Virus record (IMG/VR): IMGVR_UViG_2565956726_000008 | DNA from: a virus | Lineage: Duplodnaviria; Heunggongvirae; Uroviricota; Caudoviricetes | Reading direction: 5' to 3' (one strand) | Length of the DNA: 64,000 bases | Part shown: piece after piece, positions 12,311-40,045 of the stretch | Layout: each line of letters opens with the position of its first letter | Position numbering within the stretch: the first letter of the stretch is position 1 | The notes under the pieces: generated by a model | The model's database searches: none | The model's input: only the letters and a program-made list of their open reading frames with translations | Told to the model about the DNA's origin: nothing | Program-made: the position numbers and the translations under genes

Positions 12311-13015
12311 ATGCGCAATATTCCGAGAGAAATGATTATTGATTCCGTCGATGCCGGAGTCGGCGCGGTAATTGACTTGTTTGAATTAGACCTCACGCCC
12401 CTGGGTGGCGAGGTTATCCGCTTCCATTCCGGCGTGAATGGCTATTACGGCCCGGTTATCTGGAAGGGGGTGGCTTACAACAGCTACCCTATCGAGGCCA
12501 CTGGCTTCGAAATGAAAAACGAGGGTGTCTATTCACGCCCGCAAATGGTTGTAGCCAACATTGGCGGCCTAATCACCGGGATGAATAACGATTTCAACGA
12601 CCTGCGAGGAATGAAAGTTACACGCCGCCAGGTGGAAGTAAAATACCTGGACGCCATCAACTTCCCCAACGGCAACCCGGATGCAGATCCGTCTATCGAG
12701 GCGGTGTCTTTTTACGTCGTTGAGGCGATGAGCGAAGAAACAGCCGACCAGGTGCAATATGAGCTGTCAACGCCAATTGATGCTGACAAGGCGGTTATCC
12801 CAGGGCGCACAATCCTTGCTGACGTTTGCCAATGGCAATATCGCGGCGACGGTTGCGGATACAGTGGCGGCCCTGTAGCTACTGATAAAGACGAATCGAC
12901 CAGCGATCCAAAGCTGGATAAATGCAGCCACCGCCTGAGCGGTTGCCGTTTACGTTTCCCGCGCCCGAATCCGTTACCAATTTCATGTTTCCCAGGATCG
13001 AGCAAGGTGGGTTGA
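12311..13015 (+). CDS. minor tail protein L (lambda gpL-like)
   Basis: 234 aa; Cys-rich C-terminus as in lambda L. Confidence 0.85.
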   Translation: MRNIPREMIIDSVDAGVGAVIDLFELDLTPLGGEVIRFHSGVNGYYGPVIWKGVAYNSYPIEATGFEMKNEGVYSRPQMVVANIGGLITGMNNDFNDLRGMKVTRRQVEVKYLDAINFPNGNPDADPSIEAVSFYVVEAMSEETADQVQYELSTPIDADKAVIPGRTILADVCQWQYRGDGCGYSGGPVATDKDESTSDPKLDKCSHRLSGCRLRFPRPNPLPISCFPGSSKVG

Positions 13016-13017
13016 TT

Positions 13018-13749
13018 ATGGCACTTGAAGATAAAATGATTCGCTATGCAGCAGCCCACCCGCGCGAGGAAGTGTGCGGGCTGGTGATAGATAACGATTA
13101 TTTTTACCCGTGCGCTAACGTGTCTGAAACGCCGCACAACAGCTTTAAAATCTCGCCTGACGATTATATCAAAGCTGACGAATTGGGCGTTATAACAGCC
13201 GTTTTCCACTCTCACGTTGAAGATATTCCGGTATTGTCGGCACGGGATCGACAACAGCAGGTTATTTCCGGCCTGCCGTGGTTTTTATGTTCCGGTGGCA
13301 GGGTTAGAAAATTCCGCCCGGTAGCGCACCTGTTAGGCCGAAAATTTGAGCACGGGAAAACAGACTGCTACGCGCTTTTCCGCGACGCATATCACCTTTG
13401 TGGCGTGGATCTACCGGACTTCGAGCGCCTTGATGGCTGGTGGCTGCGTGGGGAAAACCTGTACATAAAAAACCTGCCATTGAACGGGTTTTTCATGGTT
13501 GATGCGCAAAGCATTCAGCCTGGTGACGTGATTATTCGCCAGCCGTTCAAGGGTGCTGACCCATGTCACGCGATGATTTACCTGGGCGATAACACTGTTT
13601 TGCATCATGACAATGCCGGACTGCTAAGCCGCCGCGAGCAAATGCGGCCCGCGTATGTTCGACAAACGCATTCAATATGGAGATCTGACAAATGCTCAAA
13701 TTTAGATTTACGGGCAATCTTCGAAGATATTACGGCAAAGTGTGTTTAA
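13018..13749 (+). CDS. tail assembly protein K (JAB/MPN + NlpC/P60-like)
   Basis: Starts MALEDKMIRYAAAHPREEVCG as in lambda K; ATG 2 nt after the L stop. Confidence 0.8.
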   Translation: MALEDKMIRYAAAHPREEVCGLVIDNDYFYPCANVSETPHNSFKISPDDYIKADELGVITAVFHSHVEDIPVLSARDRQQQVISGLPWFLCSGGRVRKFRPVAHLLGRKFEHGKTDCYALFRDAYHLCGVDLPDFERLDGWWLRGENLYIKNLPLNGFFMVDAQSIQPGDVIIRQPFKGADPCHAMIYLGDNTVLHHDNAGLLSRREQMRPAYVRQTHSIWRSDKCSNLDLRAIFEDITAKCV

Positions 13750-37838: not shown

Positions 37839-37999
37839 GCCAAATTAACAATCAGGGAACTGCGTGAACTGAAAGAGAAATCATAATCCAAATCTGAATA
37901 ATTAAATTTAGCACTGTAAATAAAATTTAATCCTTAACCGGAGGGGGGGGCTGCACCCTCAAAATATTAGGAGGCGGCCCGAAAGGGCGGTAATGAAAA

Positions 38000-38503
38000 A
38001 TGACTGAATTAACCAAAAAGCAATTAATCGAAGAAGCTAAATTAAAAATAGCGATTGAGAAATGCCACCCCAATTCAGGGATGGCACGGGTAGAGGGCGA
38101 ATTATTCAAAATTGCTCTGGCATCGCTGGAAGCAGAGCCAGTTGGTGATTTTTATGAATACAAACCGGATGACTGGTATCAGCGTTCGGCTGGAGATAAA
38201 GCGCCAAAATGGACGCCACCCTATGCCGTTTTTCCAGCGCCCGTAGTGCCGGAAGAAATGGATTTGCTTACATGCCATCTCGATGGTGTAACTGAAACAT
38301 ATGCTGAGGGATGGAACGCTTGCCGCGCTGCCCTGCTTCAGGGCAAAGGGGAGCCCGGGAAACAAGTTCGCGAATTGACAATGCTGGTTAAACAATTGGT
38401 TAGTCAACTGAAGAAACCGAAACCGGGCTGCAAATTGCCGGATAAAGTGATGGACTACCTGGAGCGAAGCGGACTTATAAGCGTGGAGGATGTTTTACGA
38501 TGA
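38000..38503 (+). CDS. hypothetical protein (nin-region)
   Basis: 167-aa ORF with GGAGG RBS. Confidence 0.4.
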   Translation: MTELTKKQLIEEAKLKIAIEKCHPNSGMARVEGELFKIALASLEAEPVGDFYEYKPDDWYQRSAGDKAPKWTPPYAVFPAPVVPEEMDLLTCHLDGVTETYAEGWNACRAALLQGKGEPGKQVRELTMLVKQLVSQLKKPKPGCKLPDKVMDYLERSGLISVEDVLR

Positions 38504-38583
38504 CCTGGCCTGAAGCATTCACAACGGTAGGAATTGCGATGGCGGTGGCGCTGGTGGTGTATTCGATTTGCCGCTGGGGTTGA
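38500..38583 (+). CDS. 27-aa hydrophobic peptide overlapping upstream stop
   Basis: MTWPEAFTTVGIAMAVALVVYSICRWG; ATGA overlap; single TM helix. Confidence 0.3.
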   Translation: MTWPEAFTTVGIAMAVALVVYSICRWG

Positions 38584-38623
38584 TAATACTAAATAACCAG
38601 CCCTTATGGGGCTGGCTAATCAT

Positions 38624-39397
38624 TTAGAACTGTTCATTGCCATCGAGGTTAGGTAGCATAATTTTTTCAATCAAGGCGAGAGCCTTTTTGTCCCGGTCAG
38701 CGAAGTATTTCGGGGCATATTGCGGCAACCAAATATTGTTAAAATGTTCTTTGAAATCTGCTAAATATTCATTTGGGTACAGCCTTGCAGGGTATACGCG
38801 ACCATCGGGATATTCATGGTCATAGGTAGGGAATGTTTTGGGTTCTACGTTTCTATTATCTCTTAACCATTGTGAAAATACTCTTCCTTGTGAAATGTCA
38901 GGAACCATTTTTTCTGGGAGTGTGTACCCTGCTTGTTCAAGAGGTGCAACCAAGTTGAATGTCAGTTCATTAAGAATAGAAAAGTGCGTGTGAGGAATTC
39001 TACTACGATTAACCATGTACCGTTTTAAATGTACAGGCATTTCTGCTGTAGTTCTTTCCCCTGACATCCATTCACGAACCCATCTTGAAACCTGGACTGC
39101 AAATTTGGGCGATAGCCACTGCGCTAGATTAATAGCGATGTCAGGATGCACCCATGTCCCTTGGTTTTCAGGTCTTCCACCTTTAAATGATTGAATTAAC
39201 TCCGATATGGGAATTCCCATATCGCGTGATAATTCGTCAAAAAACTCTTGAGTAGTTTTGAGTCTAGTGTAATCAGAGAGCAGTTTGCCCGCAGTTCTAC
39301 ACATTGATGTGGCGTTTATGTAACCATCTTTGGCACGTAAATGTATTATTTCGCCGTCAATTTCACGAGAAATCAAAGATAATTGAAAGGATGTCAT
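38624..39397 (-). CDS. KilA-N domain protein (antirepressor-like)
   Basis: 257 aa; N-terminal KilA-N-like region (GEIIHLRAKDGYINATSMCR). Confidence 0.55.
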   Translation of the reverse strand: MTSFQLSLISREIDGEIIHLRAKDGYINATSMCRTAGKLLSDYTRLKTTQEFFDELSRDMGIPISELIQSFKGGRPENQGTWVHPDIAINLAQWLSPKFAVQVSRWVREWMSGERTTAEMPVHLKRYMVNRSRIPHTHFSILNELTFNLVAPLEQAGYTLPEKMVPDISQGRVFSQWLRDNRNVEPKTFPTYDHEYPDGRVYPARLYPNEYLADFKEHFNNIWLPQYAPKYFADRDKKALALIEKIMLPNLDGNEQF

Positions 39398-39919
39398 TGA
39401 AAATTCCTCAAGTTGGAGAGTTCTGGAACATTAAGGCGAGGTGGCAGTAATGCACCATCTGTAATCTTTTGATACTGACGTAATCGGGCCTGATGTGCAA
39501 CGCCTTGCAAGTATGTAACTCATTGAAAACGATCATTTTTATCTATTGACATCAAATGGCAAACTGTCATTGTGCGGCTATGGCAAGTGGCAAATGCTTA
39601 TAAATCATATGGATATAAATAGTACAGAAAGAGTTGTTTTCTCTAGGATATGAGTATACGCCCAATGCTGATTGGTTGAATTTTGTTCTTGTTTTAAAGG
39701 GTAAGAGTTTAAAGTGTTGGCAGTGATGTATTGGATAGTTAGAATTGCTGTGGGTGCTTGAGGCTATCTGCCTCGGGCATGAACACCAAAGGTAGATAGA
39801 GAAAAGCCCCAGTTAACATTACGCGTCCTGCAAGACGTTTAACATTAATCTGAGGCCATATCTATGCGACACATAGAGATTAGCCTCTTACGGACCGAAA
39901 GGTCAAGGAGAAGCAGGCT

Positions 39920-40045
39920 ATGAAGCAGCAAAAGGCGATGTTAATCGCCCTGATCGTCATCTGTTTAACCGTCATAGTGACGGCACTGGTAACGAGGAAA
40001 GACCTCTGCGAGGTACGAATCCGAACTGGCAGACGGAGGCTCTGA
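39920..40045 (+). pseudogene. hok/gef-family type I toxin remnant (frameshift and nonsense)
   Basis: Translation MKQQKAMLIALIVICLTVIVTALVTRKDLCEVRIRTG then out-of-frame RRRL-stop; 3' end still shows ...TAC TAA TCT GAG TAA as in hok ...YESE. Confidence 0.5.

Follow-up and report, generated by a model that had tools for sequence, protein, structure and literature searches.

Does the 27-codon frame that opens on the stop codon of an E. coli prophage gene encode a protein, and if so, what might such a short product do? The frame lies in the window, a stretch of 64,000 nucleotides of tailed-phage DNA (IMG/VR record IMGVR_UViG_2565956726_000008), which is here 100% identical to a Rac-like lambdoid prophage of E. 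coli strain 7/2. The prophage carries, in order, a repressor, cro-like genes, ydaT, replication genes and DnaC-like ydaV, then DUF1627, DUF977, the gene for a 167-aa protein and the small ORF, which PGAP leaves unannotated. Beyond it come a KilA-N gene on the opposite strand, hok, DUF1971 (also on the opposite strand), DUF1367, DUF1364, the Q-like DUF1133 and the lysis genes. The features around the small ORF are collected in Table 1.

Table 1. Features at and around the small ORF, in positions of the window.
Feature	Position	Strand	Remarks
Intergenic stretch before the upstream gene	37900-38000	+	about 100 nt, containing ..ccggaggggggggctgcaccctcaaaatattaggaggcggcccgaaagggcgg..
Upstream gene, 167 aa	38000..38503	+	matches phrog_660, no Pfam domain
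Shine-Dalgarno core GGAGG	38485..38489	+	10 nt before the ATG of the small ORF, inside codons V-E-D of the upstream gene
Small ORF	38500..38583	+	27 codons plus stop, product MTWPEAFTTVGIAMAVALVVYSICRWG; member of the proposed WPEAF phage micropeptide family
ATG of the small ORF	38500-38502	+
TGA of the upstream gene	38501-38503	+	overlaps the ATG as ATGA
TGA of the small ORF	38581-38583	+
1.15-kb segment with the KilA-N/BstA-like gene	38580..39735		insertion relative to 933W and the EDL933 prophage
Hairpin	38594..38618		10 base pairs, 6 G-C pairs; 10 nt past the stop of the small ORF
KilA-N/BstA-like gene	38624..39397	-	PADLOC BstA model match, E=3.2e-21, residues 119-238
hok/sok locus	39717..40045	+	promoter-like site, Rfam sok match, hok CDS
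hok promoter-like site	39717-39745	+	TTGGCA-17-TAGAAT
sok	39752-39922		Rfam match, 101.5 bits
hok CDS	39920..40045	+

The coordinates and the translation bear out the first-pass annotation, which had described a 27-codon frame overlapping the preceding stop as ATGA. No in-frame start lies farther upstream, and the last codons of the upstream gene hold the Shine-Dalgarno (SD) sequence. The existence of such a frame proves nothing alone, because the surrounding 5.5 kb contains 90 ORFs of at least 20 aa.

The peptide consists of an N-terminal M-x-WPEAF, a hydrophobic helix at residues 6-24, and R25. Residues 6-24 are 19 uncharged residues between E5 and R25, with a mean Kyte-Doolittle hydropathy of 2.11, which supports a membrane helix; the approximate free energy of membrane insertion, about +0.2 kcal/mol on the Hessa scale, is borderline. 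A homologue folded with its alignment gives one continuous predicted helix (H3-31, mean pLDDT 94). The single transmembrane-type helix claimed at first pass thus agrees with the hydropathy and with the helix predicted for the homologue. A lipoprotein or a cleaved signal peptide was rejected: the window peptide shows no basic n-region, lipobox (L-[AS]-[GA]-C) or AXA site, its N-terminus is acidic (E5), Y-S-I precede C24, and C24 occurs in only 9 of 67 members of the family described below.

The first-pass annotation had made the frame stand or fall with its conservation in homologous regions, and there we find it conserved. Viral contigs of IMG/VR were scanned with a pattern fixing the first seven codons only (ATGAMNTGGCCNGARGCNTTY), the rest of the ORF being unconstrained by the search. 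The scan returned 120 loci, 119 of which were used for locus comparison. Continuations past codon 7 nearly all give a total of 27 codons; among the 119 loci, one departs by an in-frame 6-nt deletion, two by a premature stop and one by loss of the stop. Frame, length, start and SD are kept across the 119 phage contigs, and the identical peptide is encoded by 13 different DNA sequences.

For codons 8-27 of 52 unique E. coli-type coding sequences, we obtain a pN/pS of 0.44 in this frame; the two alternative frames give 0.65 and 1.89. When changes are counted on a minimum spanning tree built from the codons observed, 38 are synonymous and 50 nonsynonymous (omega 0.48), and the excess of synonymous changes is significant solely in the frame of the small ORF (P=6e-4). 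Replacements are nearly all among hydrophobic or small residues, with Y21 and W26 invariant in the E. coli-type sequences. Judged from these codons, an omega of about 0.45 indicates moderate constraint only.

Eleven matches to the pattern are divergent, their DNA after codon 7 being unrelated to the E. coli type. Ten of the eleven are nevertheless 23-34-aa ORFs with a hydrophobic stretch, against a background for short hydrophobic ORFs of 1.8% of ATG positions in the same contigs (P=4e-17). The contigs of these members range in GC from 0.40 to 0.66. A chance ORF without function might be suspected where short ORFs are so plentiful and PGAP makes no call, but this reading is extremely improbable, being effectively refuted by the kept frame, the pN/pS values, the SD, the relatives recovered by profile and the excess of hydrophobic continuations. 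The frame is not due to chance because it is kept after at least 83 upstream proteins and before many unrelated sequences, with the synonymous excess in-frame only. Comparison of sequences thus makes it almost certainly a real, conserved and usually unannotated protein-coding gene.

The variety of the upstream genes is considerable. At least 83 distinct full-length proteins precede the small ORF in related phage loci, among them DUF551-containing proteins, Ea22-like coiled-coil proteins and proteins ending, as in the window, in the ..LPDKAMDYLKRNGLISVEDVLR module. In a 301-aa example, the DUF551 domain occupies residues 173-231. The C-terminal ~50 aa of the window's upstream protein (..ELTMLVKQL..LPDKVMDYLERSGLISVEDVLR) form a module common to many mosaic upstream genes, which accompanies the small ORF in many genomes (megablast matches over query 506-680). 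The junction itself is uniform: stop and start overlap as ATGA in 97 of 126 matches and as TGATG in 16, and in 97 of the 119 loci the spacing from GGAGG to the ATG is 7 or 10 nt, the motif falling within the last codons of whichever gene is upstream.

Given this arrangement, the peptide could be an anchor or partner subunit, a coupled product made at about 1:1 that tethers or regulates the Ea22-, DUF551- or VEDVLR-type upstream protein at the inner membrane. The small ORF always comes directly after a gene of this mosaic class, with stop and start overlapping; the C-terminal module travels with it; and rare in-frame fusions, P0123 (143 aa) and P0130 (78 aa, start Met lost), carry the peptide at the C-terminus of the upstream protein, which hints at a different role, that of an anchor. 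However, the upstream C-termini belong to at least three unrelated classes, and remote members of the family follow unrelated small proteins. Frameshift errors or pseudogenes could account for the few fusions, and most longer 'fusions' (P0022, P0100) are gene-caller extensions in the frame of the peptide across the upstream gene. We therefore regard the anchor as unlikely.

Two ways of attaching the peptide to DUF551 were considered and dropped. It has no match to DUF551 (PF04448), a domain that sits in the upstream protein, and the 'DUF551 ... partial' names of 25-39-aa NCBI copies look like annotation carry-over. Fusion of the peptide to DUF551 by a programmed frameshift was rejected, as no slippery heptamer of the X XXY YYZ type occurs at ..AAT CAA TGA.

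Separately, at least 12 of 30 sampled megablast rows (query 1-99 or 1-118) show the intergenic stretch before the 167-aa gene in other E. coli genomes too, where it precedes different genes, DUF7167 among them. The stretch has no match in an Rfam scan and may be a conserved leader or a mosaic junction.

On the downstream side, homology among the loci stops at the stop codon of the small ORF. What follows is a hok/sok locus starting no more than 50 nt from the stop in 32 of the 119 loci, a DUF4222 gene in 18, another ORF in 12, hairpins or canonical terminators in about 28 and a scatter of other sequences in the remainder. At some loci other than that of the window, the small ORF is immediately followed by a canonical plus-strand terminator. 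In the window, the 1.15-kb segment is inserted exactly between the stop of the small ORF and the hok promoter, as compared with 933W and the EDL933 prophage. Its KilA-N gene matches the PADLOC BstA model and is therefore a BstA-like abortive-infection defence gene. The hairpin is part of the same insertion; its score is that of an intrinsic terminator of the BstA-like gene on the minus strand, and with its weak plus-strand T-tract it may act as a partial stop on the early plus-strand transcript.

A segment lying exactly at a mosaic junction, with unrelated sequence on either side, and often forming the last cistron before a terminator or the hok promoter, might matter as DNA or through its mere translation. 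Its 80 nt could be a recombination linker, or translation to the end of the operon could serve mRNA protection or termination control, with the peptide irrelevant. Against this, members without alignable DNA past codon 7 keep the helix, the small-residue register and the basic position 25, and the synonymous excess is confined to one frame. The local RNA fold is no more stable than that of shuffled sequence (z=-0.94), and the Rfam scan finds nothing over the small ORF, its sole match being the sok that belongs to hok. An RNA element was rejected on these last two grounds, and a purely cis-acting role is in our view very improbable.

How widely is the gene distributed? Of 5426 complete E. coli genomes, 1616 (~30%) give a blastn match to a 171-nt query spanning the ORF; a genome has up to 7 matching places, and 164 places are on plasmids. 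Many matches cover query 31-110 alone, that is, the small ORF itself, and they lie under varied annotations (DUF551, pyrophosphohydrolase, methyltransferase and hypothetical proteins). By tblastn, 94 phage records carry it, including 933W, VT2-Sakai, VT1-Sakai, BP-4795 and Min27; lambda is absent among the phage matches listed. In 933W it lies after L0139 and before sokW/hokW, in VT1-Sakai after H0068 (whose equivalent is annotated DUF551 in related phages) and before xis, and in the EDL933 Rac-like prophage after an 81-aa gene. In 933W, VT2-Sakai, P22, P32 and ST2-8624 it directly follows the last ea22 variant of the exo-xis region.

These positions qualify the 'nin-like region' in which the ORF was placed at first pass. 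The term suits the present Rac-like prophage, in which replication genes precede the ORF and the Q-like antiterminator follows it, but not the gene's general home: more commonly it stands at the end of the ea22/DUF551 genes in the exo-xis (pL) region, in Stx phages as in other lambdoid phages.

A six-frame motif and HMM scan detects no WPEAF homologue in the Rac, Qin, DLP12 and e14 prophages of MG1655. The lack of the peptide in these four K-12 lambdoid cryptic prophages is the probable reason why K-12 small-protein surveys did not come across the family. Among species-representative genomes, pattern matches are limited to E. coli, Shigella, one metagenome-assembled genome (a 65-aa variant), a contaminated contig and a chance match in Streptomyces; they are so few that the taxonomic breadth of the family rests on metagenomic and viral contigs.

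Two database records deserve a remark. NZ_JPLE01000323.1 ('Xanthomonas pisi', 431 nt, GC 0.50) holds a 933W-type small ORF followed by a 933W-like hok-promoter region; this assembly has almost certainly been contaminated with E. coli phage DNA. In PP818812.1, 'Actinobacillus phage vB_Apl-pPE4', positions 12655-13205 are 88% identical in DNA to the window prophage region, small ORF included; the recorded host, Actinobacillus pleuropneumoniae, is an unexpected attribution.

Phage 24B, the phage of the ea22 deletion work (PMC7093339), is without the small ORF, and an involvement of the peptide in the delta-ea22 phenotype published for that phage was accordingly dismissed. In the 24B record (HM208303, 2682-2911), a DUF551-type Ea22 (vb_24B_6c) ends in ..PLPEPPQEVNRG* and the next gene is a different, overlapping one with a GTG start. 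Within the 3' end of ea22, this record has a further annotated ORF, vb_24B_5c, of 23 aa.

From sequence, the small ORF of the window belongs to a new family of putative phage membrane micropeptides, a kind already known. The family design is M-[T/N/S]-W-P-E-A-F, followed by a 17-residue hydrophobic stretch with G11, A13, A15 and A17, and K/R at about position 25. We propose to define the family by this design, a total length of 23-40 aa and coupling to an upstream early gene; the window peptide fits at every position. Relatives whose DNA cannot be aligned with that of the window past the first seven codons keep the design. Remote members occur in tightly packed runs of small overlapping early genes, at one locus downstream of a YqaJ exonuclease and RecT.

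A word-indexed search, for which the alignment was headed by a 40-aa read-through variant, returned 99 clusters, all named 'hypothetical', 'bacteriophage protein' or 'DUF551 ... partial'. A HMMER profile search of 1.84 billion representatives gave 80 clusters (50% identity representatives) at E<1e-3. No anchor was used in the HMMER search; since the family search, by contrast, started from the N-terminal motif, part of that motif's invariance reflects how the members were ascertained.

The 67 representatives below 70% identity all have M1, W3, P4 and A6, while position 2 is T in 30, N in 25 and S in 12, E5 is found in 61 and F7 in 64. Along the helix, position 10 is V or A in 60 of the 67; G11 is present in 46, A13 in 37, A15 in 54 and A17 in 48. 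W or L occupies position 18 in 39, and K or R position 25 in 41. Some members, P0001 among them, have in-frame duplications or expansions in the helix, for example MTWPEAFTTVGIAMA twice, or IAMAMAMAMAMAVAL, which suggests slippage on the GCGATGGCG repeat.

No model in Pfam, PHROGs, NCBIfam or PADLOC covers the family; DUF883_C, PTR2, phrog_4612, KdpF and phrog_38566 give sub-threshold chance matches only. A literature search with peptide strings retrieved no relevant paper, none that names the family and no ribosome-profiling or proteomic record of it; the peptide also has no match in the supplementary files of the Sakai ribosome-profiling paper. Keyword searches of a structure paper and a review on the exo-xis region (PMC10834534, PMC8614690) found no mention of a transmembrane segment or of a small ORF after ea22. 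The proteins of that region are described as soluble, whereas the WPEAF peptide from the same region has a predicted membrane helix.

Small single-helix peptides of prophages are often toxic membrane effectors or regulators of membrane proteins, as the first-pass annotation remarked, and the first of these roles brings Hok to mind. Like the WPEAF peptide, the Hok/Gef type I toxins (PF01848, RF01794) are small, prophage-borne and built on one transmembrane helix. The two genes are adjacent in many phages, and in the window only the inserted defence gene separates them. An autonomous toxin, oligomerizing into a pore through its small-residue faces, would depolarize the membrane and arrest growth or kill, in the manner of type I toxins or pinholins. 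Its single hydrophobic 27-aa helix, the G/A-x-A-x-A-x-A pattern and a weak, sub-threshold likeness to the glycine-zipper Pfam model DUF883_C (E=0.042) are compatible with this, as are the neighbouring hok/sok loci and a natural chimera, the E. coli protein P0097. In the latter, the N-terminal half of the peptide (its first 15 residues) is fused to the C-terminal part of Hok (MTWPEAFTTVGIAMA joined to LVTRKDLCEVRSRTGQTEVAVFTAYESEE), under the NCBI name Hok family toxin; the chimera probably arose by deletion between two neighbouring helix-coding segments.

The small one-helix hydrophobic build is, however, the only type I property that we find. The peptide has no sequence similarity to Hok and no match to the Hok (PF01848), Ldr, TisB, Ibs, Fst or other toxin families in Pfam and NCBIfam at E up to 10. 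No antisense RNA covers the small ORF, and no promoter-like site lies antisense to 38400-38700; where type I toxins typically have a promoter of their own and a folded, silent, translationally repressed mRNA, the small ORF has a strong SD and ordinary early-gene coupling. The charge polarity is also opposite: Hok starts MKQQK, with a basic N-terminus, whereas the peptide has E5 near its N-terminus and R25 near its C-terminus, so that the predicted topology is inverted. Intact copies persist, with up to 7 matching places per genome and a match in 1616 of the 5426 complete E. coli genomes, defective prophages included, and early depolarization would be expected to harm phage replication and to trigger holins prematurely. 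A Hok-type toxin is disfavoured because of the strong SD, the ordinary coupling, the lack of antisense RNA or own promoter and the many intact copies; we consider an autonomous toxin of any such kind improbable, and a binder or regulator in the membrane the better guess.

The Hok of the window is itself unusual, with 41 aa ending in ..RIRTGRRRL, compared with 51 codons for the hokW CDS of 933W, and looks like a C-terminal frameshift variant. Membership among holins or pinholins was likewise rejected: the small ORF lies in the early region, away from the lysis cassette and late control. In the identical prophage, a holin and a glycoside hydrolase family 24 protein (lysozyme type) are encoded ~5.4 kb downstream, past the Q-like gene.

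Regulators of membrane proteins offer closer parallels. KdpF, AcrZ, MgtS and CydX are single-helix proteins of 25-50 aa, often encoded by a short coupled cistron, that bind a larger membrane protein. The WPEAF peptide is of similar build, but it shows no homology to them and is phage-encoded; against the KdpF model (TIGR02115) it scores 14.7 bits, below the cutoff of 26.85.

Phages offer two further comparisons. PfsE of the Pseudomonas filamentous phage Pf4 is located in the inner membrane; to our knowledge, its sequence and motif are unrelated to those of the WPEAF peptide. It is a ~30-aa micropeptide that acts through binding of host proteins (PMC11323111). PfsE is the product of a filamentous phage, whereas the WPEAF peptide is encoded in delayed-early operons of tailed temperate phages. 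The Qin prophage protein DicB has 62 aa and no transmembrane helix, and we know of no sequence relation between it and the WPEAF peptide. The product of an early-left-type operon of a lambdoid prophage, DicB acts on phage infection by altering inner-membrane proteins (PMC6832061), and so provides a precedent for the type of role that we propose for the WPEAF peptide.

On balance, we are inclined to see here a genuine micropeptide gene, translated early by coupling, whose product forms a single inner-membrane helix and acts by helix packing. The loci keep the ORF together with its start codon, length and ribosome-binding site as a block, between flanking genes that are exchanged from one locus to the next. 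On reaching the end of the upstream accessory gene (Ea22-, DUF551- or ..VEDVLR-type), ribosomes would re-initiate or initiate at the ATGA, aided by GGAGG. The peptide would thus be made with the delayed-early transcripts, from pR here and from pL/exo-xis in Stx phages, minutes after infection or induction. In Stx phages, ea22 is the most highly transcribed early gene (PMC10834534). By its position just downstream of ea22, the small ORF of 933W-type Stx phages would share this early expression.

Once made, the peptide would insert in the inner membrane as a single helix, with its N-terminus out and its C-terminus in. This topology is predicted from the positive-inside rule and from determinants like those of the Pf3 coat protein: position 5 is conserved as acidic, the 19-residue helix is uncharged and position 25 is conserved as K/R. 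The invariant WPEAF end would then face the periplasm, with the basic end in the cytoplasm. G11/A15 and A13/A17 might provide two smooth helix faces for packing against another transmembrane helix, of a host inner-membrane protein or perhaps of further copies of the peptide. Such packing could change the activity of a host protein in the phage's favour, for example in the DNA entry of a second phage, in transport or in proteolysis. The peptide would not be an autonomous killer.

A bolder extension, which we offer as a doubtful one, is that the WPEAF ends and the helix faces dock on one conserved inner-membrane machine, such as a channel for phage-DNA entry (with immediate superinfection exclusion), FtsH or a transporter, and so shift the lysis-lysogeny balance. 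The peptide would then be an overlooked exo-xis player in Stx phages, possibly together with Hok.

The gene is matched in about 30% of complete E. coli genomes and in the reference Stx phages 933W and VT2-Sakai, yet PGAP skips it and no family library covers it. It can be removed by a single base change, 38500 A>C, which turns its ATG into CTG and the upstream CGA into CGC, a silent change, with the upstream stop kept. The sharp signature, tiny size and silent knockout make it an easy test case for the roles of phage membrane micropeptides. Within the exo-xis region of 933W-type Stx phages, the small ORF has gone unrecognised. Variants of the ea22 type influence the lysis-lysogeny decision in these phages; since the small ORF is coupled to such genes, constructs that delete or over-express them may also remove the peptide, or fail to supply it.
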